Below, piece after piece: positions 46,889 through 61,020 of a stretch of 64,000 nt of DNA; within the stretch, counting starts at the first letter, position 1, and every line of letters starts with the position of its first letter. The DNA is from a virus. The DNA is taken from IMG/VR virus record IMGVR_UViG_3300029915_000016, positions 1-64,000 of that record, one strand, 5' to 3'. The position numbers were made by a program, and so were the translations under genes. Under the pieces are notes generated by a model. It was not told the DNA's origin. It searched no databases and worked only from the letters and a program-made list of their open reading frames with translations.

Positions 46889-47235
46889 CCGTCAAGAAGA
46901 TCAAGCCACGCTATCCCTGCCCTCTTTGTGACTCTGAAATGAGTTTTGAGTTGACTATCAACGCGCACAGAGGATTCAATGATTACGTGGCAGTGAACGT
47001 GAAAGCGAGTTGCTCAAACGATAAGTGTCGGTACGAGGAGCGAACAAAGGGACACTCCAAAAACATGGAAACCGTAGAAAAGATGCGAGATGTAGTGGCA
47101 TCCTATCGCGGTGCGGAGATGTTCAAGCAGGGAAGATTTGAGGAAGGCAACATAGGAATCAATCGGCGTCGGCATACCGGCATAGGACACTTTGAACCCG
47201 TAACCGCAGAGGAAGTGAAAGGGAGGAAACGATGA
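46885..47235 (+). CDS. hypothetical Cys-containing protein
   Basis: CPLC...CSNDKC; coupled. Confidence 0.55.
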   Translation: MTVKKIKPRYPCPLCDSEMSFELTINAHRGFNDYVAVNVKASCSNDKCRYEERTKGHSKNMETVEKMRDVVASYRGAEMFKQGRFEEGNIGINRRRHTGIGHFEPVTAEEVKGRKR

Positions 47236-47510
47236 GCGCAGGAAAGCACAAGTATGATGGAATTAACCCGTTGAATAGGTTGCACGAAGGCGAACCGTGG
47301 TTTTTTGTTAGGGGACAGGATAGGCTAAGTGTTGATGCGGTAATCGAATACAGCCATCTCCTACGCCGTGAGGCAAACAAGGCGTCTCTACGAAATGATT
47401 ACGACCTGTCGGATTCTCTTTCCAAACAGGCCGCAGATGTGCTTGAGTTTGCTCAAGATTTCGTGGATTGGCAGAAAGAGAACAACGATCTGGTCAAGTA
47501 TCCAGACTAG
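47232..47510 (+). CDS. hypothetical phage protein
   Basis: EPWFFVRGQD...KYPD motif. Confidence 0.7.
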   Translation: MSAGKHKYDGINPLNRLHEGEPWFFVRGQDRLSVDAVIEYSHLLRREANKASLRNDYDLSDSLSKQAADVLEFAQDFVDWQKENNDLVKYPD

Positions 47511-47707
47511 CGGACTAACGGATGACCGAAACCACCCGATCCGATAAGAGGAACAAGAGCATAGATGAGCCAAATAAGGAAGATAACTCCAACAATTGCT
47601 GCTGCAATGTTTATCCATGGCTGAGGCGCTCCAAGTGTACGGGCAACGTAGAAAATCAACGCGACGATCAGCATGAACACAAGGATTGTAATCAGAAATC
47701 CGATCAT
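47507..47707 (-). CDS. small two-helix membrane protein
   Basis: GAGG RBS; two transmembrane segments. Confidence 0.6.
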   Translation of the reverse strand: MIGFLITILVFMLIVALIFYVARTLGAPQPWINIAAAIVGVIFLIWLIYALVPLIGSGGFGHPLVR

Positions 47708-47777
47708 GGGACACCTCACATCTCAGTAAACGACGTTTTTATCCTTTGCGATGTATCGGATTGAACAGGAGAGTGCA

Positions 47778-48659
47778 ATGAAAAACAGACGATGGGGCGA
47801 TAACGACAAGTATTGGGGTCCGTTTACATACGCGCATTCGGATAAAGAATACAATCCTTTCGCGGTTATACTTGGATCTGGAGACGAGGAGCATCCGGGG
47901 TGCTATCTCAGGCTTGGTGCATTCCATAGGACGCTGATCTGTTCGCTCCCGCCGATCATTCCACCGTATCGCAGGAAGGTAGTTGCGAAGTTTTGGAACG
48001 AGGATGACATTAAGCGTCTAGGACGCAACTGGTACTACGACGTTCATGAGCGTGAGTACGGATTCTCCTATGCCGCGAGTGGATGTATCGGAGATGGTGG
48101 ATTTCTGCAAGTCTTTCTTGGCCGTCAGACGCACGACAGCAGCAACGAACAGCGGTGGTCATGCTTCACGCCATGGAATAAATGGAATAACTGGCGTCAT
48201 GTGAGGAATAGTTATTACGGTTTGTATGGAGAGTTTTTTGCATCCGAACCACAGCATCGTATCGACTTCACTACGAAGGCAGGAAACGACAAGTACGCGG
48301 AGTGGACGGCGATTGTGGATGCTTGCCCTACGTTTACGTTCGCATTCAATGACTTTGACGGTGAGTTGCTAACCGCCAAAACTCGTATCGAGGAGCGCCA
48401 GTGGGAACTTGGAACTGGATGGTTTAAGTGGCTATCTAATTTCCATAAGCCAATCATTCACCGTTCGCTTGATATTCAATTCTCAGGCGAAACCGGAAAG
48501 CGCAAAGGATCATGGAAGGGTGGCACGGTAGGACATTCTATCGAGATGCTACCCGGAGAACTGCACGAGTCGGCGTTTAAGAGATACTGCAAAGAGCACG
48601 ATATGGTATTCCTTGGCAGGAGCGGAATAGGAGCATTTGACAATTCCCGTAGTGTGTGA
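47778..48659 (+). CDS. hypothetical protein
   Basis: AGGAG RBS; Trp-rich; FSGETGKRKGSWKGG. Confidence 0.7.
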   Translation: MKNRRWGDNDKYWGPFTYAHSDKEYNPFAVILGSGDEEHPGCYLRLGAFHRTLICSLPPIIPPYRRKVVAKFWNEDDIKRLGRNWYYDVHEREYGFSYAASGCIGDGGFLQVFLGRQTHDSSNEQRWSCFTPWNKWNNWRHVRNSYYGLYGEFFASEPQHRIDFTTKAGNDKYAEWTAIVDACPTFTFAFNDFDGELLTAKTRIEERQWELGTGWFKWLSNFHKPIIHRSLDIQFSGETGKRKGSWKGGTVGHSIEMLPGELHESAFKRYCKEHDMVFLGRSGIGAFDNSRSV

Positions 48660-48672
48660 GAGGATTTACCTC

Positions 48673-48744
48673 ATGAAGAACTTGTGCTTATCTCTATCGT
48701 CTTATTGCTCACTCAGTCTGAGTGGACGAGAGGCTATGGGATAA
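48673..48744 (+). CDS. leader peptide 1 (Leu/Ser/Cys/Tyr sensor) of tRNA operon A
   Basis: MKNLCLSLSSYCSLSLSGREAMG; TTGACA at 48637; codons match the downstream tRNAs. Confidence 0.8.
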   Translation: MKNLCLSLSSYCSLSLSGREAMG

Positions 48745-48768
48745 GTCCAAGTTTAGGATTTGTACCAC

Positions 48769-48797
48769 GAGCCTCCAGAAATGGGGGCTTTTGTTTT
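48769..48797 (+). terminator. attenuator terminator of tRNA operon A
   Basis: GAGCCTCCA-GAAA-TGGGGGCTT followed by TTGTTTT. Confidence 0.8.
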
Positions 48798-48799
48798 GT

Positions 48800-48878
48800 G
48801 GGAGAGTACGCCAACGGAAGAGCGTTTGGACTTAAAATCCAAAGGATATGACGGGTTCAAATCCCTCCTCTCCTACCA
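48800..48878 (+). tRNA. trnL: tRNA-Leu(TAA), short variable region
   Basis: Cloverleaf; TTGGA-CT-TAA-AA-TCCAA; CCA. Confidence 0.85.
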
Positions 48879-48880
48879 TT

Positions 48881-48953
48881 GTGCCGTAAGCGAAGGACGA
48901 GCATCCGATCTGCAAAATCGGAGAACAGGGTTAAAGTCCCTGACGGCACTCCA
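48881..48953 (+). tRNA. trnC: tRNA-Cys(GCA)
   Basis: CCGAT-CT-GCA-AA-ATCGG; U73-CCA. Confidence 0.85.
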
Positions 48954-48965
48954 AGTTTAAGATGT

Positions 48966-49051
48966 GCGCGTGTAGCAAAACGGCAAAGCGCAAGGTTTAG
49001 GCCCTTGAGGTGGAAACACCATTGGGAGTTCGAGTCTCCCCACGCGCACCA
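48966..49051 (+). tRNA. trnL: tRNA-Leu(TAG)
   Basis: CAAGG-TT-TAG-GC-CCTTG; long variable arm; CCA. Confidence 0.9.
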
Positions 49052-49064
49052 GATTTTAGAAGTA

Positions 49065-49142
49065 CCTCGCATGGCGAAATGGAAGAGCGGCGCTCTCAAA
49101 AAGCGTGTCATATTCCCGGTTCGAGTCCGGGTGCGAGGACCA
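49065..49142 (+). tRNA. trnL: tRNA-Leu(CAA), short variable region
   Basis: GCGCT-CT-CAA-AA-AGCGT; CCA. Confidence 0.85.
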
Positions 49143-49143
49143 C

Positions 49144-49232
49144 GGAGAAGTGCCAGAACGGTAAATGGGCCGCACTGCTAATGCGGTGGTCCTGAAAAGG
49201 CCACGTGGGGTCAGCACCCACCTTCTCCGCCA
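49144..49232 (+). tRNA. trnS: tRNA-Ser(GCT)
   Basis: CCGCA-CT-GCT-AA-TGCGG; long variable arm; G73-CCA. Confidence 0.85.
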
Positions 49233-49239
49233 TGTTTAC

Positions 49240-49330
49240 GGAAGGATGAGCGGAATTGGTATCGCACTCGCTTGGAAAGCGAGCTTATGTCGAAAGGCAT
49301 ATGCAGGTTCGAGTCCTGTTCCTTCCGCCA
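49240..49330 (+). tRNA. trnS: tRNA-Ser(GGA)
   Basis: CTCGC-TT-GGA-AA-GCGAG; long variable arm. Confidence 0.9.
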
Positions 49331-49334
49331 GTTT

Positions 49335-49425
49335 GGTATACGCCGTCAACGGTGAGACAATCCGCCTCGAAAACGGATGGGGTGTCAGAGATGGCACAGG
49401 AGTTCAATTCTCTCGTATACCGCCA
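49335..49425 (+). tRNA. trnS: tRNA-Ser(CGA)
   Basis: Loop CT-CGA-AA; long variable arm; GCCA. Confidence 0.85.
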
Positions 49426-49430
49426 AGTTA

Positions 49431-49518
49431 GGCGAGTCCCGCAGACGGCTCTGCGAACGGCTTTGAATACCGTTGGCTCCTGAGAGGGATGGGGGATCGA
49501 CACCTCGACTCGCCGCCA
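49431..49518 (+). tRNA. trnS: tRNA-Ser(TGA)
   Basis: Loop TT-TGA-AT; long variable arm; GCCA. Confidence 0.8.
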
Positions 49519-49524
49519 TGTTGT

Positions 49525-49615
49525 GCGTTGGCTGTAGTGACGGTGGACTGCACCAGACTGTAAATCTGGATTCTCTTTGAGGACACTGGGGGTTCAAATC
49601 CCTCCCAACGCACCA
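49525..49615 (+). tRNA. trnY: tRNA-Tyr(GTA)
   Basis: CCAGA-CT-GTA-AA-TCTGG; long variable arm. Confidence 0.9.
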
Positions 49616-49618
49616 GTA

Positions 49619-50038
49619 TTAAATATCCGAGTTGTACCAGCGAATCATCTTCCTAAATTCGCTTAATCTAATACAGATACAATGATTAATATATTGGCGA
49701 AGTGGAGAAATAATAACTACATCTGGCATCTTCTTCATTATCCATTTCCCTTTTACCTTGACTCCAATCCGGGTAACTATCTCTGCGCCATAGGAACCTA
49801 ACCTTAATCCATCATTAGGTTTTTTATCTGTTAAGGTGGTCATGTCAAACGTGCTGACAAAATCTACTGCTTTACGGAAGTCTTTGATCGGAATCGTCAC
49901 ATCAGAAAAGTATCCACGTACAGACACACGGAACCACATCCTTTTTCCGTCTGCCGTGACGCGAGCATCAAAACCCGGTGCTTCAAACACCGCTACGTTT
50001 ACATCCCAATTATTCCCGTTCAGATCGCGTGGTTTCAT
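49619..50038 (-). CDS. hypothetical protein
   Basis: 139 aa, internal repeat (I...FRK). Confidence 0.55.
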   Translation of the reverse strand: MKPRDLNGNNWDVNVAVFEAPGFDARVTADGKRMWFRVSVRGYFSDVTIPIKDFRKAVDFVSTFDMTTLTDKKPNDGLRLGSYGAEIVTRIGVKVKGKWIMKKMPDVVIISPLRQYINHCICIRLSEFRKMIRWYNSDI

Positions 50039-50346
50039 GAAAGCATTATACATCAAATCAAATAAGGCGCATTTTTTCCTTGACAACTCGCAAGGATAGC
50101 GATACGCTTTCTTTGGGTCTGGATGGCTTCGTATCCCGTTCAAGACGGACCCCACAAATGTCTACCAACGGGAGATAGGAGATAGCTTCTCGGTAGCTAT
50201 CTGACTTGGTGGAGTCCTATTCAATACGAAATGGGCCAGAATTTGACGCGGGGAGACGGTATTTATACGTTTCCCCGTTTTCTGTTATACTAGGGGTGTC
50301 GGATGTGTCACCATCCGGCAAAGCCTCATCGTTCGGAGGAACGAAT

Positions 50347-51087
50347 ATGACACCCCTATCCAAAGATACACCTATTACTCGTAAACGCGAAAGAGCATTA
50401 TATTATCGAGAGTATAGGAAGAAAAAAGGTGCAAATCAAAGATCAGAACAAGAAGCCTTGCGTCTAAAAGCATTAGAAGAATACATCAAAAACCCAAACG
50501 TATGCTTGTTTTGCTCAAAAGTAATTGAACCTAAAATAACAGAAAAACTCTCGATAACTAAACGTAAGAGATACTGTGACGTTAAATGCTCAAGTGCGTC
50601 AAGAAAGAGAGAGTGTAAGTGTGTACCATGCATCTACTGCGGTAAACCATTAAAGAGACACCTAAAGAAATTCTGCACGAAAAGCTGCGCGTCTCGGTCA
50701 AGGGGAATCTTGCAATCTATTACGAAAGGCGATCTTTTCTCGAAAAGATCTGGATACCAATCGGCGAGGAGCGCCATACAAAGGGATGCTAGAACTGTGT
50801 ACTTGTGGAGTAAAAGGAAACTGGAGTGTTTAATTTGTGGATACTCGAAGCATGTGGATATAGCGCACATCAAACCTGTTTCAGATTTCGATGATGCGTG
50901 TACTGTCGCTGAGATAAACGCGATGGATAACCTTGTTTCTCTATGTCCTAATCACCATTGGGAATTTGATCACGGTTTTTTGAAATTCAACGCTGGTTGC
51001 TTTGAAGGATCGAATACACGTAAAGTAATCCGAAAACGTGATTACGATCAAATAAACCTATTTCCACTAGCGCAGAATAATTCTTGA
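50347..51087 (+). CDS. HNH endonuclease
   Basis: GGAGGA RBS; CLICG...DIAHIKP...NLVSLCPNHHWEFD. Confidence 0.85.
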   Translation: MTPLSKDTPITRKRERALYYREYRKKKGANQRSEQEALRLKALEEYIKNPNVCLFCSKVIEPKITEKLSITKRKRYCDVKCSSASRKRECKCVPCIYCGKPLKRHLKKFCTKSCASRSRGILQSITKGDLFSKRSGYQSARSAIQRDARTVYLWSKRKLECLICGYSKHVDIAHIKPVSDFDDACTVAEINAMDNLVSLCPNHHWEFDHGFLKFNAGCFEGSNTRKVIRKRDYDQINLFPLAQNNS

Positions 51088-51118
51088 CAACTGTATATAA
51101 TTGCGTTATCGTTTAATT

Positions 51119-51196
51119 CGCGGGGTGGACTGGAGACGGTTCCAGCTTGGTCTCATAAGCCAAATCACGTCGGTTCGATTCCGATTCCCGCAACCA
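51119..51196 (+). tRNA. trnfM: initiator-type tRNA-Met(CAT)
   Basis: CGCGGGG start with C1:A72 mismatch; CT-CAT-AA; own TTGACA at 51084. Confidence 0.85.
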
Positions 51197-51270
51197 TTTC
51201 GAGACGTGACCTGATCTGTCTCAACGGGCTTGCACGATGACAAGCGCATCTAGCAATAAGGAGAATTGAG

Positions 51271-51630
51271 ATGCGTACACGCTGCAAGTTCAAAGTTGTG
51301 TCGGTGGAAGAAATAGAAGGCGAAATCAGCCGCAAATCATTTAAGGGCGATTACGGAACCAACATCGATGAGTACGGTGGTCTAGCTGGACCGGAATACA
51401 CCGAGAGTCAGGGTTTAAGAAACGGTGAACAGTACAAATGGGTTCCAACTGGGAAGTATTGCCAGAATGTACGGCTGGCCGCACAGTATGATTCGCGGGA
51501 CTCGGAAGATATGAGTTTTGCAGCGGCGACACCTTCAGGAGAACTCAAGATTCTTGTGAGTAACCCTGTGGTGGTTGGGAGTTTTAGGCCGGGGAAGAGT
51601 TTTTATCTCGACCTGATTCCGTGTGAATAA
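51271..51630 (+). CDS. hypothetical phage protein
   Basis: AAGGAG RBS; RCKFKV...FAAATPSGEL....N......F.PGK.FYLD. Confidence 0.75.
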   Translation: MRTRCKFKVVSVEEIEGEISRKSFKGDYGTNIDEYGGLAGPEYTESQGLRNGEQYKWVPTGKYCQNVRLAAQYDSRDSEDMSFAAATPSGELKILVSNPVVVGSFRPGKSFYLDLIPCE

Positions 51631-51850
51631 GGTTCCACGTCCCCTCACGGTATGGTGACGTGGTGGTGGTCCGGTGGGGTGCAAACCCTATTGGGGTCTG
51701 ACAGCCGGGAAAGACCGGCAAGGATTGATGGGTTGCGTCGGCGCATCCCTTAACGGGTGGCCTAGGAGTTAGGAAACCAGACGGTTGTTACCGTTGGACG
51801 GAGAATACCGCTAGAACAGTTGGGCCGATGAGATGGGCGCTGTGGCACTC

Positions 51851-53090
51851 GTGAATCACCGTCATCTAAATCAGACAGTTTCCGGCTTCAATGGCATCTG
51901 CGTTAGCTAAAGACTTGCGTCCCAACTTCCGTCTTACGTTGCCTCCACCAGCAGTAGCGCCAATCCCTGACGCCAGTATCCGTAAACCTTCGTCACGGAT
52001 ATTCTTCGCCGCATTTATATCGCGGTCATGATGTGTTGAGCAGGATGGGCAGGTCCAAGAACGAACAATTAACGGCATCTTACCATTCTGAAATCCGCAC
52101 TCGGAACAAACTTTGCTTGACGGAAAAAAGCGTCCTATTTTTATGAAAGCCTTACCATCGCGCTCTGCTTTGTACTTGAGAAACAATGTTAGTGTTCCCC
52201 ACCCTACATCTGATACTGCTTTCGCAAGGTTATGGTTAGCTATCATTCCCTTCACATTCAAATCCTCTACGATCACGACTTGGTTCTCATCAATGATCTT
52301 GCGAGAGACTTTGTGAAGGTAATCACGGCGCTGGTTTGTGATATGTTCATGAACTCGTGCAACCTGAATACGTGCTTTGTTGCGACTTGATGAGCCTTTC
52401 TTTTTGCGACTCAAAGATTGCTGCTTACGCTTTAGATTCTTTTCTGACTTGGCAATCCAGCGAGGATTATTAAACTTCGATCCATCGCTAGTAATTGCTA
52501 AATGCGTTAAACCTACGTCTACACCGATTGCCTTCCCTTCGATAGAAATAGGAGGAACAGGAATAGAATCATCGGTAAGAATCGAAGCGTAGTAGTGGCC
52601 GCATGGATTCTTGCTCACCGTGACCGTCTTGATTCGTCCAACAATCTCACGGTGTATGACAGCCTTAACTTTGCCAACTTTAGGAAGATTTATTATACTC
52701 CCGTCTATTTTAACGTGTTGCGGATACTGAATCGACTGTTTTCTATGCTTAGATTTGAATCGTGGATATCTAGCCCTCTTCTCAAAGAAGTTCTGGAACG
52801 CTGCTGCCAAATTACGAATTGATGATTGAAGGACTTGCGCGTATGCGTCTTTCATCCATTCATGTTCTGTTTTCAATTCAGGCAAACGATTCGCCATTGC
52901 AACAAATGTGAGACTTTTTCCGGTTTCCTTGTACACTTTCTGCGTTTCCGCCAAAGCCCAATTCCACGTCCAACGAGCACATCCAAACTGGCATACAAGT
53001 AAATTTTCCTGCTCAAAGGTGGGATAGAGACGAAATTTTGTCGTATTCAACATTTATTTAATCCTACCATGTATACGATTAAATGTCAAT
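51851..53090 (-). mobile_element. TnpB-only IS1341-like element; right end ...GATTCAC at 51851
   Basis: Subterminal hairpin ACTGTC...GACGGT then TTCAC on the minus strand; no tnpA; left end undefined. Confidence 0.6.
51866..53053 (-). CDS. tnpB: TnpB RNA-guided endonuclease (IS200/IS605 family)
   Basis: FRLYP...FGCARWTWN; RuvC GVDVG, IVEDL, DRDINAA; zinc finger. Confidence 0.95.
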   Translation of the reverse strand: MLNTTKFRLYPTFEQENLLVCQFGCARWTWNWALAETQKVYKETGKSLTFVAMANRLPELKTEHEWMKDAYAQVLQSSIRNLAAAFQNFFEKRARYPRFKSKHRKQSIQYPQHVKIDGSIINLPKVGKVKAVIHREIVGRIKTVTVSKNPCGHYYASILTDDSIPVPPISIEGKAIGVDVGLTHLAITSDGSKFNNPRWIAKSEKNLKRKQQSLSRKKKGSSSRNKARIQVARVHEHITNQRRDYLHKVSRKIIDENQVVIVEDLNVKGMIANHNLAKAVSDVGWGTLTLFLKYKAERDGKAFIKIGRFFPSSKVCSECGFQNGKMPLIVRSWTCPSCSTHHDRDINAAKNIRDEGLRILASGIGATAGGGNVRRKLGRKSLANADAIEAGNCLI

Positions 53091-53158
53091 ATTTCTCTAT
53101 TTTTGCGTTTACTTATTTCACTAAGATGTGATATAAAAAGTAACAGCAACAAGTTTAC

Positions 53159-53232
53159 GGTCCCATGGTCTAACGGTATGATTCATCTCTGTCTAAGATG
53201 CGTTCGGGGTTCGACTCCCCGTGGGATCGCCA
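53159..53232 (+). tRNA. trnD: tRNA-Asp(GTC)
   Basis: CATCT-CT-GTC-TA-AGATG; GCCA. Confidence 0.9.
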
Positions 53233-53239
53233 TAGTTGT

Positions 53240-53323
53240 GCTGCCGTTCTCGGTACTGGTATCTGAGCACCGTCTTTCAAGCGGTTGAATTTAATGCGAG
53301 TTCGATTCTCGTCGGCAGCGCCA
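53240..53323 (+). tRNA. trnE: tRNA-Glu(TTC)
   Basis: ACCGT-CT-TTC-AA-GCGGT; GCCA. Confidence 0.85.
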
Positions 53324-53330
53324 AGTTTAT

Positions 53331-53405
53331 GTCCTTGTCTTCCAACGTTTAGGAACTCCGGCTCTCTACCGGATAACGCGGGGTAAGCACCCTCCAAGGA
53401 CACCA
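53331..53405 (+). tRNA. trnE: tRNA-Glu(CTC), atypical T arm
   Basis: TCCGG-CT-CTC-TA-CCGGA; ACCA. Confidence 0.7.
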
Positions 53406-53520
53406 TTTCGAGAACGTATGACGAGAACGCAGATCGCAATAGGATTTGTAGTCAAGGTAGCAACCAAGATGTTTTGGTGGATAATTTTGATATTCCTGTT
53501 GTGGATACAAAGTTTGTGAG

Positions 53521-53645
53521 TTTGTGCGGCGGCGTGGAGCGACACGCTAAACCTTATCGTGATATTCATCCCCCACGAGATAAGATAAGGTGAGGAAGAT
53601 TGGGGGAACGACCTGTATGCCGGTTTCGTACCCGGCCCGCACAAA
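53521..53645 (+). ncRNA. tRNA-like RNA with a large structured insert in place of the anticodon arm
   Basis: TTTGTGCGG/CCGCACAAA stem, GCGTG...CACGC D-like arm, GCCGG-TTTCGTAC-CCGGC T-like arm. Confidence 0.55.
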
Positions 53646-53660
53646 TAAATCACAAACTGC

Positions 53661-53690
53661 TTGACATTTGAAAACGAACAAGGATATAGT
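53661..53690 (+). promoter_or_regulatory. sigma70 promoter of tRNA operon B
   Basis: TTGACA-18 nt-TATAGT; ATG 7 nt downstream. Confidence 0.75.
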
Positions 53691-53697
53691 GAAAAAC

Positions 53698-53772
53698 ATG
53701 ATGACCTTTACCACACATACCGCGACACAAGCACCGACGCAGCCAGCCGGTAATCGCGGAAGTGCAGGATAG
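53698..53772 (+). CDS. leader peptide 2 (Thr/Phe/His/Ala/Gln/Pro/Gly/Asn/Arg sensor) of tRNA operon B
   Basis: MMTFTTHTATQAPTQPAGNRGSAG; codons match the downstream tRNAs. Confidence 0.8.
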   Translation: MMTFTTHTATQAPTQPAGNRGSAG

Positions 53773-53814
53773 GGTCTCAGTAGGATTTTTACTCGCATAG
53801 CGAATAAAACTGAA

Positions 53815-53853
53815 GAGGCCCGGTTCAAACCAACGAATCGGGCCTTAGTGCGT
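53815..53853 (+). terminator. attenuator hairpin of tRNA operon B (weak U-tract)
   Basis: GAGGCCCGGTTC...GAATCGGGCCTT followed by AGTGCGT. Confidence 0.6.
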
Positions 53854-53863
53854 AGGAGTAGCA

Positions 53864-54301
53864 ATGGGGAAAGCGATTCACGTTATTAGCAATGTTGATG
53901 AAGATATGAAGACGGCAGATTGTGCGTTTTGTGGTCGCGTGAAAGTGAAACTGAAAAATAATGGTAAGGGTAGATCAAGGCGGTGGGCATGTACTATCGC
54001 GCAGAAAAAATGGGACGGTGCAAGATGTAAAACAGGAAAACCGCTTCGCAATATGACAGACGAGCAAATGGCTCACTACGTATTCAATCGACACGGAAGT
54101 TGTGATATTTGCGGTAGCGTACCACGCCGAATGTTGAACCGAGATCACTGCCATGTAACAGGAAACCTTCGCGGCTTGCTGTGCTATCGCTGTAATACGC
54201 TGCTAGGAAAATTTGATGACAGCATCGAGAAACTCCGTATAAAGGCAGATATTTTCCTGAAGGCGGCATGTTATCTCGAAAGGAACGATACAAAGTTTTG
54301 A
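53864..54301 (+). CDS. endonuclease VII-family HNH endonuclease
   Basis: CDICG...RDHCHVTGNLRGLLCYRCNTLLG. Confidence 0.85.
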   Translation: MGKAIHVISNVDEDMKTADCAFCGRVKVKLKNNGKGRSRRWACTIAQKKWDGARCKTGKPLRNMTDEQMAHYVFNRHGSCDICGSVPRRMLNRDHCHVTGNLRGLLCYRCNTLLGKFDDSIEKLRIKADIFLKAACYLERNDTKF

Positions 54302-54388
54302 TGTGCGATACCCGAGAGGTAGCAGGGACGATACTGTTAATATCGAGAGGTTTATCCTCCACCGTAGGTTCGAATCCTACTCGCACAG
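54302..54388 (+). tRNA. trnN: tRNA-Asn(GTT) with long variable arm, no encoded CCA
   Basis: CGATA-CT-GTT-AA-TATCG. Confidence 0.85.
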
Positions 54389-54403
54389 CCTTTAGTAAGA
54401 AGT

Positions 54404-54477
54404 ACCTCGTTCGTTCAACGGCAGGACGACTGACTCTGACTCAGTTAATTGACGTTCAAATCGTCAACGGGGTGCCA
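54404..54477 (+). tRNA. trnQ: tRNA-Gln(CTG)
   Basis: ACTGA-CT-CTG-AC-TCAGT; GCCA. Confidence 0.9.
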
Positions 54478-54488
54478 AAGATTAACGT

Positions 54489-54562
54489 GGGATCGTCGTT
54501 CAACGTTAGGACATTGCCCTTTGGAGGCAATTATCAAGGTTAGAATCCTTGCGATCCTGCCA
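54489..54562 (+). tRNA. trnQ: tRNA-Gln(TTG)
   Basis: TTGCC-CT-TTG-GA-GGCAA; GCCA. Confidence 0.9.
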
Positions 54563-54570
54563 AACAGTAA

Positions 54571-54645
54571 GCGGGTGTATATCAACGGTAGATAGTCTCG
54601 TTGCCAACGAGAAGGAAGAGGGATCGTCACCCTCCACCCGCTCCA
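54571..54645 (+). tRNA. trnG: tRNA-Gly(GCC)
   Basis: TCTCG-TT-GCC-AA-CGAGA; TCCA. Confidence 0.85.
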
Positions 54646-54740
54646 TATTAGGAATAGTAGCCGACATGGAACATAAGATGATTTTGATGAGTGCCGACTT
54701 CCGAGAGGTACACAAGGTTGTAGTGGCAAAACGTAAACAT

Positions 54741-54815
54741 GCTGGTATGGCCGAGAGCTTAGGCGCTGACCCCGTAAGTCAGAACACACAGGTTGAAATC
54801 CTGTTGCCAGCCCCA
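54741..54815 (+). tRNA. trnT: tRNA-Thr(CGT), C33
   Basis: CTGAC-CC-CGT-AA-GTCAG. Confidence 0.8.
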
Positions 54816-54850
54816 TTTCAAGAGAGTCAAGCTACGGATTGAGGTACGTG

Positions 54851-55396
54851 ATGAGCACGTTGATGAAAAAGCCGGTTTTGGTCCTTAACGCCTCGTATGA
54901 GCCGATCAGGATAGTTCCAGCGCGTCGTGCTCTCACGTTGATTTGTAAGGGTGCTGCAATGGTTGAGCAACCTACACGGATAGAAGTCTATCCGGGTATA
55001 ACTCTACCATCTGTAATCCGGCTTAGGACATATCGGCATATTCCTATACGCCTTCAAATTGTCAGTCGCAAGAACATTTATATCCGTGACGGTCATAGGT
55101 GCGGATATTGTGGACAGCAATTCAAAGGTGATGAACTGACGTTAGATCACATTCAACCAAGATCCCGTGGAGGAAAGAACGACTGGTCTAACCTAGTAAC
55201 TTGCTGCCGAAAAGACAACCATCGTAAGGCAGACAGGACGCCAGAGGAGGCAGGAATGAAACTGCTCCGTAAGCCTCTTCCGGCAACAGTTCACACAGGA
55301 CGTGGATTGCTACGTTCCATGGCGCTTGAAGTTGGGGCGTGGGAAAAGTATTTGTATTCCGACTCAAAAGGAGAAACGAAGTTGCAGTTTTCGTAA
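54851..55396 (+). CDS. McrA-like HNH endonuclease
   Basis: VLVLNASYEP; RD..RCGYCG...LTLDHIQPRSRGGKNDWSNLVTCC...N..K. Confidence 0.9.
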   Translation: MSTLMKKPVLVLNASYEPIRIVPARRALTLICKGAAMVEQPTRIEVYPGITLPSVIRLRTYRHIPIRLQIVSRKNIYIRDGHRCGYCGQQFKGDELTLDHIQPRSRGGKNDWSNLVTCCRKDNHRKADRTPEEAGMKLLRKPLPATVHTGRGLLRSMALEVGAWEKYLYSDSKGETKLQFS

Positions 55397-55400
55397 GTTT

Positions 55401-55472
55401 GCCGAATGCTCTGAGTAGCAGCGGGAGCTTGTATCTCCTGCCCGGTCGGTTCGATTCCGACATTCGGCTCCA
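55401..55472 (+). tRNA. trnT: tRNA-Thr(TGT)
   Basis: GGGAG-CT-TGT-AT-CTCCT; TCCA. Confidence 0.8.
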
Positions 55473-55572
55473 AGTGGCTGAGGAAGCCAATCCGTTAAGC
55501 GTGGAGCACATGGCTTAACGGGCTAGGGGACACGGGGCGAGTGCTACGCAATCCGACTCCACCAAAGTTCAT

Positions 55573-55648
55573 GGCGGCTATAGTTCAGAGGCAGAACGCC
55601 GGTCTGTGGCATCGGATGTCGGGATTTCAAAATTCCCTAGCCGCCCCA
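55573..55648 (+). tRNA. trnH: tRNA-His(GTG)
   Basis: G-1:C73; CCGGT-CT-GTG-GC-ATCGG. Confidence 0.9.
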
Positions 55649-55655
55649 TTTTAAC

Positions 55656-55730
55656 GGGCCAGTAGCATAGATGTAATGCGTCACCCCTGCAAGGTGAAGT
55701 TCGAGGACTCAAGCCCCTCCTGGTCCACCA
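55656..55730 (+). tRNA. trnA: tRNA-Ala(TGC), C33
   Basis: G3:U70; TCACC-CC-TGC-AA-GGTGA. Confidence 0.85.
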
Positions 55731-55739
55731 GTTTTGTAC

Positions 55740-55816
55740 GGCACTGTAGCTCAGAATGGTAGAGCAGGACTCTGAAAAGGTCCGTGTCGCGGTCTCGATA
55801 GCCGCCAGTGCCACCA
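55740..55816 (+). tRNA. trnF: tRNA-Phe(GAA)
   Basis: GGACT-CT-GAA-AA-GGTCC; ACCA. Confidence 0.85.
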
Positions 55817-55817
55817 T

Positions 55818-55895
55818 CGGAATGTAGCGTAGTCTGCTTAACGCGCTCGCTTCGGGAGCGAGAGATCGCAGGTCGAAATCCTGCCATTCCGACCA
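55818..55895 (+). tRNA. trnP: tRNA-Pro(CGG)
   Basis: CTCGC-TT-CGG-GA-GCGAG; C1-G72, ACCA. Confidence 0.9.
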
Positions 55896-55901
55896 GTTTA
55901 A

Positions 55902-55976
55902 CGGGGTGTAGCTCAAAGGAAGAGCACTAGTTTTGGGAACTAGAGGCTGTGGTATCGTGATCCACCACCCCGACCA
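55902..55976 (+). tRNA. trnP: tRNA-Pro(TGG)
   Basis: CTAGT-TT-TGG-GA-ACTAG. Confidence 0.9.
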
Positions 55977-55992
55977 TCTATTAGGAGTAGCG

Positions 55993-56238
55993 ATGAGGGA
56001 TATAACAATACAGGAAGCATCCGAGTGTATCAAGAGAACGCTACCGCGCTGCACGCCTGATATTTGGTTTCTCACGCGCTTCAAGGATTACGTGAATAAC
56101 AACACAGAAGTTGACGATATGGAGGAAGATGAATTTTTCGATAGTTTTCTTCCTTGCGCTTTGTGGGCTTTCACTGAAGCGATGTACAGCACGATTATGC
56201 CAGTTACTAGGTTTGGCGAATGTGCGCCTCTAGCTTAA
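55993..56238 (+). CDS. small acidic hypothetical protein
   Basis: AGGAG RBS; 3' end overlaps tRNA-Arg. Confidence 0.55.
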   Translation: MRDITIQEASECIKRTLPRCTPDIWFLTRFKDYVNNNTEVDDMEEDEFFDSFLPCALWAFTEAMYSTIMPVTRFGECAPLA

Positions 56239-56299
56239 TGGAAAGAGCGGCACTCTACGAAAGTGTCAGGTTCCCGTTCAAGTCGGGAGGGGCGTACCA
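56224..56299 (+). tRNA. trnR: tRNA-Arg(ACG)
   Basis: GCACT-CT-ACG-AA-AGTGT; ACCA. Confidence 0.9.
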
Positions 56300-56311
56300 A
56301 AGATTTTCACA

Positions 56312-56358
56312 TGCAAGCAAAAATAGTGCTTGCAATTGCGCAGAGTTTGATGTAAGGT
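56312..56358 (+). promoter_or_regulatory. putative promoter and operator of the Y RNA/Ro60 operon
   Basis: TTGCAA-17 nt-TAAGGT; inverted repeat TGCAAGCA-N7-TGCTTGCA overlapping the -35 box. Confidence 0.5.
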
Positions 56359-56477
56359 TGGAAATGTTGAGTTTGAGCTTCGGTGCAGGAATGGAAACAT
56401 GACCATCCTGACGAATTAGGTCTCAGAGTATCGAGCCTTGTAGCTAGGTTACAGGACGGCTACCACCGGAAATAAGT

Positions 56478-56623
56478 AAGCGAGAGCCGGAAGAGTTGGA
56501 TTATCGCCTATGGAGCGGGTTATACGGGTTCGAGTCCCGTCTGGGGAACCAATAACGAATCGACTTCCCCGGTCGTCTAATGGCAGGACGCCTAAACATC
56601 CAGTTCGCTATTTGTTCTCGCTT
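56478..56623 (+). ncRNA. Y RNA-like 1 (YrlA-type, permuted tRNA module)
   Basis: GAGCCG/TTTGTTC stem enclosing T arm, acceptor stem, D arm in permuted order. Confidence 0.8.
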
Positions 56624-56630
56624 TAAGTTT

Positions 56631-56760
56631 TGCACGAGCCGTCCGAATTTCGTTATCCTCCGCCAAACTGGGGGCGTAGCTTAATGGCTAAAGCGCCAGA
56701 GTAATCTGGATATTGGGTTCGAGTCCCACGTCAACGCGAAGTTCAATTTTTGTTCGTGCA
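56631..56760 (+). ncRNA. Y RNA-like 2 (non-permuted tRNA module)
   Basis: GAGCCG/TTTGTTC stem enclosing D arm, GTAA-capped stem and T arm. Confidence 0.75.
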
Positions 56761-56767
56761 GTTTTTT

Positions 56768-56826
56768 GTACGGGTCGGAAGCCAGCGTTACCTTGTAAAT
56801 ATCGCTGTCTGATTATTTATCCGTAC
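56768..56826 (+). ncRNA. Y RNA-like 3 (minimal)
   Basis: GTACGGGTCG/TTTATCCGTAC. Confidence 0.7.
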
Positions 56827-56842
56827 CAATGGAGAGTGAATC

Positions 56843-57322
56843 ATGGGTTTCATAGCCGAAGTTTCAGCCACAGATAGGTTTTGGAGTAAGGTTGATAAAT
56901 CGGCTGGGCATGGTCCAAACGGGGACTGTTGGGTTTGGACTGCACGTAGGAATTTAGATGGCTATGGGCAGTTTCGTCCTTCCTCTTGGAGATCAGGTGG
57001 TAAACTTGTAAGCGCACACGTATTTTCGTATCGCGAGAGTTTTGGCGAGTTTGATGCTGGATTACAAGTCCTGCATCGCTGCGATAATCCGGCTTGCGTT
57101 AGGGCAGAACATTTGTTTGTAGGTACGCAGGGTGACAATGTTCACGACATGATAGCGAAAAATAGATCGGGCCTAAATTTTCTTGGCTCTGATGTGATCG
57201 CTAACATTCTCGCGATGCATGGCAAAGGGATTAAACAGACAGAAATTGCCAAGAACGTTGGGATACACAAGCAATCTGTCTGGAGAATCATTAAGAGGAT
57301 GGCGGTAAAATCCTTGGCGTGA
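56843..57322 (+). CDS. HNH homing endonuclease (HNH_3-like) with C-terminal HTH
   Basis: RFWSKV...CWVWT...GYGQF...AH...VLHRCDNPACVRAEHL..GT..DN. Confidence 0.9.
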   Translation: MGFIAEVSATDRFWSKVDKSAGHGPNGDCWVWTARRNLDGYGQFRPSSWRSGGKLVSAHVFSYRESFGEFDAGLQVLHRCDNPACVRAEHLFVGTQGDNVHDMIAKNRSGLNFLGSDVIANILAMHGKGIKQTEIAKNVGIHKQSVWRIIKRMAVKSLA

Positions 57323-57329
57323 TAAGTTT

Positions 57330-57399
57330 TGCATGGGTCGTTTGGCTCAGCGTTATCCTTCTAAGATAAAACCGCTGGCTGGTTGTTTTTATCCATGCA
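57330..57399 (+). ncRNA. Y RNA-like 4
   Basis: TGCATGGGTCG/TTTATCCATGCA. Confidence 0.7.
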
Positions 57400-57407
57400 G
57401 TGTTTCA

Positions 57408-57550
57408 AAGTGCGAGTCGAAAGAAGTTGATTATCTCAACATGAATGTCATGGGTTCGATTCCCATCGTCGTAGTAATACGATGTAGCTCAGTTGGTAGA
57501 GCGTCTGGATGCCGAAAGGCGTATTCGACTTCAACCATTTATTCGCACTT
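57408..57550 (+). ncRNA. Y RNA-like 5 (classic YrlA architecture)
   Basis: GAGTCG/TTTATTC stem; T arm, GTAA-closed acceptor stem, D arm TAGCTCAGTTGGTAGAGC. Confidence 0.85.
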
Positions 57551-57554
57551 AAGT

Positions 57555-57656
57555 TTGTCAGAGCCGGATGGGTTTGGTTATCGGTTCAAATCCGCTACAC
57601 CGCAAGGTGAATGGCTGTCCGCAAGGACAATCCAAATCCGCTATTTGTTCTGACAA
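57555..57656 (+). ncRNA. Y RNA-like 6
   Basis: GAGCCG/TTTGTTC stem; T-loop hairpin plus two GCAA tetraloops. Confidence 0.75.
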
Positions 57657-57662
57657 TAAGTT

Positions 57663-57739
57663 TGCAGGGTCGGAAGTTCACTGTTCTCTACTACGAATAG
57701 AATGCCGAAAGGCGCACGGTGGGCACTATTTATCCTGCA
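57663..57739 (+). ncRNA. Y RNA-like 7
   Basis: TGCAGGGTCG/TTTATCCTGCA; GAAA tetraloop. Confidence 0.7.
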
Positions 57740-57749
57740 TTGAATGTCC

Positions 57750-57790
57750 ATAAGGGTCGAGCGGCAAAGCCGTTCCAATTTTATCCTTAT
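57750..57790 (+). ncRNA. Y RNA-like 8 or Ro60-binding hairpin in the 5' UTR of Ro60
   Basis: ATAAGGGTCG/TTTATCCTTAT ending 4 nt before the RBS. Confidence 0.65.
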
Positions 57791-57807
57791 GACCGGGAGA
57801 AAGACGA

Positions 57808-59493
57808 ATGAAGAACTATATCACCAATGTAATTGATCCATCCACCACGCCTCAGACTGAGGCACTTCCAAACAAAAACCAAGTGAAGAACTCCGCTGGC
57901 GGATTCGTGTTTGCTGTGACGCCATGGACCCGGCTTGAGAGGTTCCTTGTACTGGGAACTGAGGGCGGATCATACTACGCATCAGAGCGCGATCTGACCA
58001 AGACCAACATCGATGGCCTCAAGTCTGCTTTGGCTGAGGATGGCATCCGGTTTGTCAACACGGTTGCCCAAATCAGTCATGCTGGCCGTGCGCCGAAGAA
58101 TGATCCTGCGTTGTTTGCATTGGCTTTGGCTGTTGCCGACAAGCGCAAGGATGTATCCGCATACGCCCTGAGCAAGCTGTCAGACGTGGCGAGAATTCCC
58201 ACACACCTGTTTTCCTTTGCACAGTACGTGCAGAGCCTACGGGGTTGGGGAAGGGCGCTGCGTGGTGGAGTGGCTGATTGGTATCTGTCTAAGCCTGCTG
58301 ACAAGTTGGCTTACCAACTTGCAAAGTACCAGTCGCGTAACGGATGGTCAAACGCAGACCTTTTGCGCCTGAGTCATGCCAACCCTGAGTTGCAGCCTGA
58401 CCATAAGATTCTTTTGAATTGGGCTGTGAAGGGATGGGAGTCTGTTGGTGACGATCCTCATCCGTCAAAGGCTGTTCTTCCGGTGTGGGCATTTGAAAAG
58501 GCAAAGCGCCTCACTCCTCAAACGGGAATCAAGGAACTGGTTAGTCTCATTGCGGATTACGATCTTCCGCGTGAGTGCATTCCTACCGAGTTCTTGTCTC
58601 ATATTGAGGTATGGGATGCATTGCTTCAGAAGATGCCAATGACGGCCATGATTCGCAACCTTGGAAAGATGACTTCCATCGGACTAGTCTCGCCAAACAG
58701 TGAGGCGGCAAAGATGGTAGGAAAGCGCCTTGAGGACGCAGAACTGCTCCACAAGGCACGGATTCATCCTATCTCTGTGCTGATGGCACAATCTGTCTAC
58801 AAGTGCGGTCATGGACTCAAAGGCAACTTGTCATGGTCTCCTGTACCGCGTGTTGTAAACGCTCTAGAGAAGGCTTTCTATGCTTCTTTTGCCAACGCAC
58901 CAAAGACCGGAAAGAGGTTCTACATCGGCCTTGACGTTTCCGGTTCGATGGGAAGCGGATATGTTGCCGGAAGTCAATTGACTCCTCGTGAGGCTGCTGC
59001 TGCTATGGCAATGGTAACCATGAAGACGGAGGACGAGTATTACATCGCTGGATTCACGAACGGCACATCCCGCTCTGCATGGTCTAGCCAAGGATATGGC
59101 TCTGGTGTCACGAAGTTGGAATTGACTCCTGATATGACTTTGAAAGCTGCTTGCCGGTACACTTCTGATTTGCCTTTCGGTGGAACAGACTGCGCTTTGC
59201 CAATGATCGATGCTTTGGAGAAGAAGATCCCTGCGGACGTGTTCATGGTCATCACTGACTCTGAAACGTGGGCAGGAACCAAGCACCCAACCGTTGCTTT
59301 GCAGGAATACCGCAACAAGATGAAGATCGACGCCAAGTTGATCGTCATGGGAATGGTATCGAACGAGTTCACGATTGCCGATCCTACCGATGCGGGACAG
59401 ATGGACGTGGTTGGATTCGATGCGTCCGTTCCACAGGTCATCGCTCAGTTCATCGGCGTGGATGAGCCTCTGGCTGTTGAAACAGACGACTAA
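57808..59493 (+). CDS. rsr: Ro60 (TROVE + vWA) RNA-binding protein
   Basis: QVKNSAGGFVF, RLERFLVLGTEGGSYY, KYQSRNGWS..DLLRLSH, MPMTAMIRNLGKMT, vWA DVSGSM, GGTDC, TDSETW. Confidence 0.95.
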   Translation: MKNYITNVIDPSTTPQTEALPNKNQVKNSAGGFVFAVTPWTRLERFLVLGTEGGSYYASERDLTKTNIDGLKSALAEDGIRFVNTVAQISHAGRAPKNDPALFALALAVADKRKDVSAYALSKLSDVARIPTHLFSFAQYVQSLRGWGRALRGGVADWYLSKPADKLAYQLAKYQSRNGWSNADLLRLSHANPELQPDHKILLNWAVKGWESVGDDPHPSKAVLPVWAFEKAKRLTPQTGIKELVSLIADYDLPRECIPTEFLSHIEVWDALLQKMPMTAMIRNLGKMTSIGLVSPNSEAAKMVGKRLEDAELLHKARIHPISVLMAQSVYKCGHGLKGNLSWSPVPRVVNALEKAFYASFANAPKTGKRFYIGLDVSGSMGSGYVAGSQLTPREAAAAMAMVTMKTEDEYYIAGFTNGTSRSAWSSQGYGSGVTKLELTPDMTLKAACRYTSDLPFGGTDCALPMIDALEKKIPADVFMVITDSETWAGTKHPTVALQEYRNKMKIDAKLIVMGMVSNEFTIADPTDAGQMDVVGFDASVPQVIAQFIGVDEPLAVETDD

Positions 59494-59512
59494 CAACAAC
59501 CGATTGTGAGCA

Positions 59513-59547
59513 GGGGGTGCGGGAATATTCGCACTCCCTATTTTTTC
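59513..59547 (+). terminator. intrinsic terminator after Ro60
   Basis: GGGGGTGCGG...TCGCACTCCC followed by TATTTTTT. Confidence 0.7.
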
Positions 59548-59557
59548 AGGAGTAAAC

Positions 59558-59881
59558 ATGTATATCGTAGCTCTAATCTGGATGCACTTTGTATCTGATT
59601 TCGTCCTACAATCGGACAAGATGGCGATCAATAAGTCAAAGGATAACCGTTGGCTCTTCTTTCACTGCCTTGTGTACTCTACACCATTCTTTGTCTTTGG
59701 ATGGAAGTTTGGATGCGTCACACTCCTATTCCATTTCGTGACAGACTACTTCACATCTCGTGGAACGTCCTACTTGTGGAAGAAAGAGATGCGCCACTGG
59801 TTCTTCACTTTAATCGGCTTCGATCAAGCGATCCATCTGACGACATTATTTTTCACGTACCGATTTTTATGCTTGCGTTAG
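59558..59881 (+). CDS. DUF3307-like membrane protein
   Basis: HFVSDFVLQ...H...H...D...GFDQAIH. Confidence 0.8.
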   Translation: MYIVALIWMHFVSDFVLQSDKMAINKSKDNRWLFFHCLVYSTPFFVFGWKFGCVTLLFHFVTDYFTSRGTSYLWKKEMRHWFFTLIGFDQAIHLTTLFFTYRFLCLR

Positions 59882-59901
59882 GACTCGAAGTGGTGTACAT
59901 T
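59873..59901 (+). promoter_or_regulatory. putative promoter of tRNA operon C
   Basis: TTGCGT-17 nt-TACATT. Confidence 0.5.
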
Positions 59902-59949
59902 GATTTTACACCGCAGAAGATCGTGCAGTCGCAGTCGGAAGGATTGAAT

Positions 59950-60024
59950 ATGCAGATCAGGACCAAATCCGTGAGATCCATAACCATGACCGGGAAGCGG
60001 GTCATTTGGGGAACTTGCGTATGA
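59950..60024 (+). CDS. leader peptide 3 (Ile/Arg/Thr/Lys/Val/Met/Gly/Trp sensor) of tRNA operon C
   Basis: GGAAGGA RBS; MQIRTKSVRSITMTGKRVIWGTCV; codons match the downstream tRNAs. Confidence 0.8.
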   Translation: MQIRTKSVRSITMTGKRVIWGTCV

Positions 60025-60049
60025 GGGTCTGAGTGCATTTGTGGTACAC

Positions 60050-60080
60050 AGACCTTCGCCTAGAGCGAGGGTTTTTTGTT
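60050..60080 (+). terminator. attenuator terminator of tRNA operon C
   Basis: ACCTTCGC-CTAGA-GCGAGGGT followed by TTTTTGTT. Confidence 0.8.
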
Positions 60081-60096
60081 GGAGTTCTTTGACAAT

Positions 60097-60170
60097 AGGG
60101 GATTAGTCTAATGGCAAAACGTCTGCCTCCAGAGCAGAATTTACGGGTTCGAGTCCTGTATCCCCTGCCA
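60097..60170 (+). tRNA. trnW: tRNA-Trp(CCA)
   Basis: TCTGC-CT-CCA-GA-GCAGA; GCCA. Confidence 0.9.
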
Positions 60171-60175
60171 GATTT

Positions 60176-60244
60176 GGCACGTATCCAAGGCGGAAAGCGG
60201 CTCTCATAAAGCCGTAAACTGGTTCGAGTCCAGACGTGCTACCA
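60176..60244 (+). tRNA. tRNA-Met or Ile2 (CAT), reduced D arm
   Basis: CGGCT-CT-CAT-AA-AGCCG; ACCA; 69 nt. Confidence 0.75.
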
Positions 60245-60305
60245 AGTTCACGGCGGTTTAAACCTAAACCGATGGCGCAACACCATCCTGCCGTGATTAG
60301 TTTTT

Positions 60306-60383
60306 GGGGGTGTAGCTAGTGTTGGCACCAGCAGTCTCCTTATAAGAGACCGTCCGAAGGTTCGATTCCTTCCACCCCTACCA
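60306..60383 (+). tRNA. trnI: tRNA-Ile(TAT)
   Basis: GTCTC-CT-TAT-AA-GAGAC; ACCA. Confidence 0.85.
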
Positions 60384-60387
60384 TAGT

Positions 60388-60474
60388 GGGACTGTGGCCT
60401 AGTCAGGTTTTGGGCACCCGGCTCTTACCCGGCGCGGAAACGCAACGTAGGTTCAAATCCTACCAGTCCCACCA
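60388..60474 (+). tRNA. trnK: tRNA-Lys(CTT) with long variable arm
   Basis: CCGG-CT-CTT-AC-CCGG; GCG-GAAA-CGC arm. Confidence 0.8.
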
Positions 60475-60485
60475 ACACTTTTAAC

Positions 60486-60561
60486 GGGTTTGTCCTCCAA
60501 CGTCTAGGAAACTCGCCTTTTAAGCGAAGCAATGTGGGTTAGAGTCCCACCAAACCCACCA
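60486..60561 (+). tRNA. trnK: tRNA-Lys(TTT)
   Basis: TCGC-CT-TTT-AA-GCGA; ACCA. Confidence 0.85.
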
Positions 60562-60562
60562 T

Positions 60563-60640: not shown

Positions 60641-60645
60641 GTTTT

Positions 60646-60722: not shown

Positions 60723-60737
60723 TGAGGGAGAAGTGAA

Positions 60738-61013: not shown

Positions 61014-61020
61014 ACTTTTT

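Follow-up and report, generated by a model that had tools for sequence, protein, structure and literature searches.

The subject of this study is a short leader sequence in the DNA of an uncultured virus, which we examined within a window of 64,000 nucleotides (nt; positions 1 to 64,000 of IMG/VR record IMGVR_UViG_3300029915_000016); the source record is an 82.6-kb virus that recurs across many peat metagenome runs. The leader RNA at 48673-48799, hereafter leader A, is in our judgement likely to be a ribosome-mediated attenuator that gates the adjoining operon of Leu, Cys, Ser and Tyr tRNA genes: it would sense the rate at which codons for these four amino acids are decoded in a small open reading frame (ORF), and stalling on them would result in read-through into the tRNA genes. 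A first-pass annotation of this DNA had proposed a leader-peptide attenuator with regulatory codons that the downstream tRNAs read, and this core reading survived the tests that were made. What is new here is a third structural element of leader A, two natural variants of it, its neighbour of the Acb3 family and a family of comparable elements in the Chitinophagaceae.

The leader ORF (48673..48744, + strand), as read from the sequence and the ORF list, comprises 23 codons, namely ATG and 22 further sense codons, followed by TAA, and its counterpart in the metagenome contig L039, described below, is of equal length. Codons 4-17 (48682..48723, +; the regulatory run, or segment 1) are TTG TGC TTA TCT CTA TCG TCT TAT TGC TCA CTC AGT CTG AGT, encoding LCLSLSSYCSLSLS. 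They read exactly as had been claimed, as 14 consecutive Leu, Ser, Cys or Tyr codons, and no other run of this kind is as long in any of the six frames of the window, the runner-up having 11 codons. These four amino acids account for 19.6% of the codons in the long ORFs of the phage, and the leader ORF is the richest in them of 500 ORFs in the window that start with ATG and have 15-40 codons. The two other frames of the same stretch specify them in just 5/12 and 6/13 codons, and the signal is thus frame-specific. The diversity of the Leu and Ser codons had also been taken to indicate isoacceptor sensing. The codons are present as read, and the nine anticodons of the operon are all matched by leader codons through cognate or wobble pairing, but the inference is weak (P about 0.14-0.15): given 14 such codons, full coverage is expected by chance 14% of the time and therefore adds little. 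The codon CTC, earlier listed as lacking a matching tRNA, has a cognate Leu(GAG) tRNA in the array of L039.

A Shine-Dalgarno-like GAGGA (48660..48664, +), read from the sequence, is situated 8 nt 5' of the leader ATG, and L039 has AGGAG 5 nt before its own ATG. A putative promoter of the form TTGACA-17 nt-GAGGAT (48637..48665, +), from which a leaderless start at 48673 had been suggested, is present as a sequence and is weak; the promoter scan did not list 48637, and no promoter was found at the equivalent site in L039. Taken with the two ribosome-binding motifs, these results do not support the leaderless start.

The regulated operon, operon A (48800..49615, +), contains genes for tRNA-Leu(TAA), Cys(GCA), Leu(TAG), Leu(CAA), Ser(GCT), Ser(GGA), Ser(CGA), a tentative Ser(TGA) and Tyr(GTA). 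The composition previously described holds for the seven genes called by ARAGORN, i.e. all except Ser(CGA) and Ser(TGA). The Ser(CGA) gene (49335-49425) emerges only at a relaxed threshold, accompanied by a weak match to the Rfam tRNA clan, while the Ser(TGA)-like gene (~49430-49518, +) was missed by both ARAGORN and Rfam, was read by eye alone and stays tentative. In the latter the anticodon stem contains a C-A mismatch and the non-canonical T-loop lacks the usual TTC, and the gene may be degenerate or unusual.

Folding of the leader RNA (48673-48799) yields a structure of -49.7 kcal/mol with two elements (z -5.0; 0/200 shuffles as good). The minimum-free-energy structure includes a long, imperfect 1:2 hairpin (48678..48754, +; arms 48678-48715 and 48719-48754), in which the codon run provides the 5' arm and the end of the ORF, containing GAGGCU, provides the 3' arm. 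By itself this hairpin has a folding energy of -33.8 kcal/mol, and none of 500 order permutations of codons 4-17 was as stable. It was absent from the first-pass annotation, and as a predicted anti-antiterminator, possibly also a pause hairpin, it adds a third element that gives the leader the classical four-segment topology. The competing 2:3 antiterminator (48730..48775, +) is built from GAGGCU:AGCCUC, UGG:CCA and AUAAGUCC:GGAUUUGU and encloses the stop codon (48742-44); its predicted energy is -22.4 kcal/mol when the codon run is masked and the 3' arm of the terminator is left out of the nascent RNA. In this masked fold lacking segment 4 the pairing claimed earlier, of GAGGCT (48730-35) with AGCCTC (48770-75) and of the inner ATAAGTCC with GGATTTGT across the stop, does form. 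A terminating ribosome would block the antiterminator because the stop codon lies within the 2:3 helix, specifically in its inner part, in agreement with the earlier proposal that a ribosome at the stop breaks this structure. The 3:4 intrinsic terminator (48766..48799, +) consists of a stem at 48769-48790, where the terminator hairpin and T-tract predicted ahead of the operon were recovered, followed by UUUUGUUUUGU. The hairpin has an energy of -15.9 kcal/mol (z -3.4), and the U-tract ends 2 nt before the first tRNA. Since this 2-nt gap holds no promoter, the tRNAs would be made by read-through only. The three pairings, as predicted by folding, are mutually exclusive in the overlapping segments. 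Searches of 47000-64000 at E <=1 returned no match to the Rfam leader families for Leu, His, Thr, Trp and Phe, and none to the T-box family (RF00230).

The evolutionary behaviour of the leader provides a further line of evidence. Scanning for adjacent Leu(TAA) and Cys(GCA) tRNA genes brought in the metagenome contig L039, whose array starts with Leu(TAA) and Cys and continues with four further Leu tRNAs, and which has a 23-codon ORF just upstream of the array. Its similarity to the window begins at the ATG; the gene upstream differs, being a small, weakly RelB-like ORF. Within the run 12 of the 14 codons are changed relative to the window, and 10 of these 12 still encode Leu, Ser, Cys or Tyr, as against a 39% expectation for single-base changes. 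Past the run just one of seven codons has changed, and the last nine residues are identical. The 1:2 hairpin has been kept (-27.2 kcal/mol, reached by 8/500 codon-order shuffles); at its apex one arm has a Ser-to-Leu change and the opposite arm a matching synonymous change, AGT to AGC. The antiterminator is likewise retained, and the terminator shows an extra U:A pair inserted across both of its arms. A third variant, on a 281-nt contig from a peat run, was compared by eye over 30 letters: its ten codons 4-13 specify LSSLCSSSYL, and the terminator is kept with one loop base different. Exact-pattern scans of viral contigs for the tRNA-Leu core and the conserved GAGAGGCTATGGGATAAG gave no matches, and no relatives were found in viral contigs through the upstream Acb3 protein.

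The same phage offers an internal comparison, as small ORFs precede two other tRNA blocks, namely leader B (53698-53772) and leader C (59950-60024). When the residues of each leader that belong to the amino-acid set of each operon are counted, leader A scores 14, 5 and 5 against operons A, B and C, leader B scores 1, 21 and 11, and leader C scores 3, 10 and 19. The matched assignment of leaders to operons totals 54, with the other permutations ranging from 16 to 35, and each of the three leaders ranks first among 500 small ORFs of the window for the set of its own operon.

A comparable design was recovered on bacterial chromosomes. The Leu(TAA)-Cys scans also matched clusters of the order Leu(TAG)-Leu(TAA)-Cys-Ser(TGA)-Ser(GCT)-Tyr in Niastella populi (L013) and in a Chitinophagaceae metagenome-assembled genome (L010), which are preceded by an ORF of 28-33 codons with a run of 12-13 Leu, Ser, Cys or Tyr codons, e.g. 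SYLLSLSLSCYS. A strong terminator follows the ORF, and its T-tract abuts the first tRNA. A search by terminator pattern found the element in 6/401 genomes of the family, all of 7.3-9.3 Mb, and in three metagenome contigs, making nine sequences (L013:3433-3587 (-), L010:974-1127, L016:1498-1662 (-), L058:1380-1536, L061:1374-1537, L062:1495-1659 (-), L027, L031 and L054); a BLAST search with the Niastella leader over 201 genomes, in which few candidates were scored per genome, gave three leaders. The ORF is near-leaderless; the motif TAnnTTTG, which matches the -7 promoter element described for Bacteroidota, is invariant 5 nt before its ATG. A conserved CUGAAGGGC within the ORF copies the 3' arm of the terminator and can pair with the 5' arm, the pairing being extended by AUGCG:CGCAU. 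This predicted antiterminator is 92% paired and the 1:2 hairpin, formed by CUGAAGGGC with the codon run, is 90% paired, compared to 16-52% in slid controls for either structure. Codon positions 7-17 show 30 distinct codon states, every one of them for Leu, Ser, Cys or Tyr, versus 11/42 in the flanks, and the changes include moves between the two serine codon boxes. These loci have no match to an Rfam leader family. The bacterial family has no obvious sequence similarity to the phage element, and on these comparative grounds it supports the design independently.

A few further observations concern these chromosomes. In Niastella populi the leader is directly preceded, on its own strand, by a gene for a 687-residue paralogue of the EF-G family (L013:3698-5758, -), which places a translation factor beside the tRNA cluster that the leader would gate. 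By BLAST the Cys-Ser-Ser-Tyr stretch had no second copy in Niastella, and a probe from another array matched one more Ser(TGA)-like gene elsewhere in it. Long arrays of tRNA genes, 9-18 in number and variable in order, are carried by many Chitinophagaceae chromosomes (L017-L022; G004, G131, G103, G007, G156, G018), and that of L021 includes a tRNA with a CTA anticodon, called Pyl by ARAGORN.

The mechanism that we propose for leader A runs as follows; the pairings are those predicted above, whereas we infer that the ORF is translated, which way the switch works and what signal it answers to in the cell. Transcription would enter from upstream, perhaps running on from the Acb3 gene, and a ribosome would initiate at the ATG (48673) by means of GAGGA. 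If the 14 codons are read fast, the ribosome would arrive at the stop (48742) and cover GAGGCU and the inner helix, allowing the terminator (48769-48790) to form and halting RNA polymerase 2 nt short of tRNA-Leu. If no ribosome is loaded, the run would pair with segment 2 in the 1:2 hairpin and termination would again ensue. When tRNAs competent to decode Leu, Ser, Cys or Tyr codons are short, the ribosome would stall roughly at codons 4-13, leaving segment 2 free before the 3' arm of the terminator is made. The free segment would then pair with AGCCUC, forming the antiterminator, and polymerase could enter the nine tRNA genes. Such an arrangement would amount to a feedback loop, in which the tRNA set is produced when the cell's supply of those same tRNAs limits translation. 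The shortage might possibly arise from a mismatch in codon usage, from host shut-off or from tRNA-cutting defences.

Several observations weigh against this proposal. For the whole RNA at equilibrium, the terminator state (-27.6 kcal/mol) is favoured over the antiterminator state (-23.3 kcal/mol) at every position of a ribosome mask, and as the mask is moved along the terminator is never lost, a result that is uninformative for a kinetic switch. Folding with the ribosome footprint masked, which had been suggested as a check, thus yields the antiterminator in nascent RNA lacking segment 4, but the terminator persists at equilibrium in the full RNA. Because the terminator state is the more stable at equilibrium, the switch would have to work kinetically, like that of trp. 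The region shows no enrichment of terminator-like sites (16 found vs 15.2 expected). In a single metatranscriptome run, contigs covered tRNA-Cys and Ser/Tyr only and left the leader uncovered; these tRNA contigs have 5-7 differences and unlike flanks, marking them as the tRNAs of relatives. Just three phage-type sequences are known, and arrays in L004/L046 and L049 share the tRNA order yet differ upstream and are devoid of this leader. Covariation is thin in the nine bacterial sequences, with 1 and 4 pairs changed on both sides, since these sequences are close. The richness in Leu and Ser could in part stem from the need to pair with the purine-rich segment 2. Finally, if stalling were caused by amino-acid starvation in place of tRNA shortage, extra tRNA would be useless. 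In L004, an observation of a different kind is that the region before tRNA-Leu(TAA) (1665-1900) has a TTGACA promoter, a short, Trp-rich ORF (3 of its 15 codons) and an additional tRNA-like element. A crude scan of the fetched arrays for further leader-tRNA pairs returned mainly the known cases and a weak candidate in L041 without a T-tract.

The nearest rival to a codon-specific attenuator is a real attenuator that senses general translation status, such as ribosome availability, transcription-translation coupling, antibiotics or amino-acid starvation, with the codon set being of little import. The 1:2/2:3/3:4 topology would react to any slowing of the lead ribosome, and the coverage of nine isoacceptors is not significant alone; moreover, in Anabaena general translational stress induces the tRNA array (PMC8421152). 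Such a sensor would need no particular codons, yet the set is constrained in two families (30/30 bacterial codon states and 10/12 replaced phage codons), and the three phage leaders have three different sets, each matching its own operon. We accordingly regard this alternative as unlikely, while giving it some weight. The terminator might instead simply be a constitutive one serving the Acb3 gene, with a chance ORF in a pyrimidine-rich arm and with the tRNAs made by leaky read-through. It does lie 110 nt past the Acb3 stop, the region shows no excess of terminator-like sites, and Leu and Ser codons are to be expected in a pyrimidine-rich arm. Against such a chance origin, the other two frames of the arm are far poorer in the four amino acids, frame, length and codon set have survived 12 codon replacements, the leader with its switch is kept in L039 behind another upstream gene, and the design recurs in the Chitinophagaceae and at operons B and C; this makes a plain terminator improbable.

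The ORF could also encode a functional peptide, i.e. a signal-peptide-like or lipoprotein fragment, a type I toxin or the precursor of a modified peptide, the RNA structures then controlling its own translation. N-termini rich in Leu, Ser and Cys resemble lipoprotein signal peptides, chiefly in Bacteroidota, type I toxin mRNAs typically have long fold-back hairpins, and the bacterial peptides are fairly conserved by position. The phage pair, on the other hand, scrambles the order of residues and keeps their composition, the signature of a sensor as opposed to a peptide that folds or is processed. The leader peptide lacks a canonical lipobox and any long hydrophobic stretch, the polar leaders B and C bear no resemblance to signal peptides, and the immediate neighbours are tRNA genes, with no modification genes nearby. 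We hold a peptide function to be very improbable, and more doubtful still is an RNA acting independently of translation, be it a small RNA or a structure heading the tRNA precursor that serves in pausing or in processing by RNase P or RNase E. The predicted fold is very stable and abuts the RNase P site of the first tRNA, as would fit an RNA of this type, but it matches no Rfam family, and such an RNA would leave unexplained why the codon set is specific to one frame, why start and stop are conserved and why both phage sequences have ribosome-binding sites. Taken with these comparisons, leader A is probably a genuine ribosome-mediated attenuator of tRNA genes, representing a variant of a known mechanism.

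The wider locus includes at least 30 tRNA genes on the + strand, detected by ARAGORN and Rfam in blocks spanning 48800-61502. The gene upstream of the leader (47751..48659, +) encodes an Acb3-family anti-CBASS protein, with a full-length match to Pfam PF25187 (Acb3; E 2e-74) and 72%-identical DNA matches in two Synechococcus phages. Its stop is separated from the leader ATG by 13 nt. Because the homologous leader of L039 follows a different gene, the Acb3 gene is, as judged from this comparison, outside the leader module. Embedded in the tRNA array are HNH and endonuclease VII genes, a TnpB and a Ro60 gene with Y-RNA-like matches, and the region looks like an accessory or counter-defence island; this would fit tRNAs that replace depleted host tRNAs. 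The YrlA (Y-RNA-like) matches, sub-threshold in Rfam, are beside the Ro60 gene (TROVE + vWA), the two features falling at 56497-57531 and 57808-59493. The interval between tRNA-Tyr and the Asp/Glu tRNAs (49619-53053) is occupied by an ORF on the minus strand, an HNH gene (50206-51087), an odd tRNA-like gene whose anticodon was called with two bases (51119-51196), an unassigned ORF and the TnpB gene on the minus strand (51869-53053). In the related arrays of L004/L046 and L049 the Tyr and Asp tRNAs are adjacent, and insertions therefore seem to have cut operon A short after tRNA-Tyr. Short tRNA-Leu genes of 74-79 nt, with no room for the long variable arm usual in bacterial tRNA-Leu, were observed in the window (48800-48878 and 49065-49142), in L013 (3273-3432) and in L010 (1128-1282).

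With somewhat better than even confidence we suggest that codon-matched attenuators represent a general, previously undescribed class of feedback on tRNA supply, found in phages and on bacterial chromosomes (a clade of Chitinophagaceae including Niastella populi), in which read-through occurs only on stalling at the operon's own codons; in phages they may serve as sensors of tRNA depletion, e.g. by anticodon nucleases, within an anti-defence island, here beside Acb3. If this is true, a leader that samples the codons read by the tRNAs behind it would act as a homeostat, adjusting decoding capacity directly, and this would explain how phages with large arrays avoid needless tRNA production and could respond to host defences that cleave tRNAs. 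The chromosomal version in the cultured Niastella populi makes the idea testable by ordinary methods. For annotators, the signature is a small ORF whose composition favours the amino acids served by the downstream tRNA cluster, followed by a terminator abutting the first tRNA.

Control of tRNA genes is classically exerted at promoters, through growth rate and the stringent response, and leader-peptide attenuation is known for amino-acid operons and for one synthetase operon. No account of leader-peptide attenuation of tRNA genes was found in the full-text literature searched, the coverage of which is incomplete. Leader A shares with trpL, hisL, leuL and the multivalent attenuators of enterobacteria, i.e. 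thrL (Thr+Ile) and ilvL/ivbL (Leu+Val+Ile), a short ORF rich in regulatory codons. As in the thrL, ilvL and trpL types, there are four segments with 1:2, 2:3 and 3:4 pairings (here predicted only), a stop codon placed such that the terminating ribosome blocks the antiterminator, and an intrinsic terminator before the regulated genes; as in the multivalent thrL and ilvL, several amino acids would be sensed together. In contrast to these systems, the phage leader regulates tRNA genes and not biosynthetic enzymes, so that the feedback would be on the tRNA pool itself; its sensed set is defined by the operon's own anticodons, its terminator abuts the 5' end of a tRNA, and it has no sequence or Rfam similarity to them.

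The pheM leader of the E. coli pheST operon is a leader-peptide attenuator of a tRNA synthetase operon and senses the amino acid that this synthetase serves; it differs from the phage leader in sensing one amino acid and regulating a synthetase, the product being a protein rather than an RNA. T-box riboswitches resemble leader A in that transcription attenuation reports the state of a specific tRNA and controls translation-related genes. In a T-box no ribosome takes part, as the uncharged tRNA itself is bound by way of a specifier codon and the T-box sequence, whereas the phage leader has an ORF. The extra tRNA array of Anabaena, like that of the phage, is horizontally mobile and has many tRNA genes interspersed with homing endonucleases, and the window correspondingly shows a long one-strand tRNA run with embedded HNH-type endonucleases (48800-61502). 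The Anabaena array is silent by default, is induced when translation is impaired and is controlled by the DNA-binding repressor TrcR (PMC8421152); the paper describing it mentions no leader, attenuator or terminator (PMC8421152). In the phage, control is predicted to be exercised through codon-matched leader peptides, one for each sub-operon.

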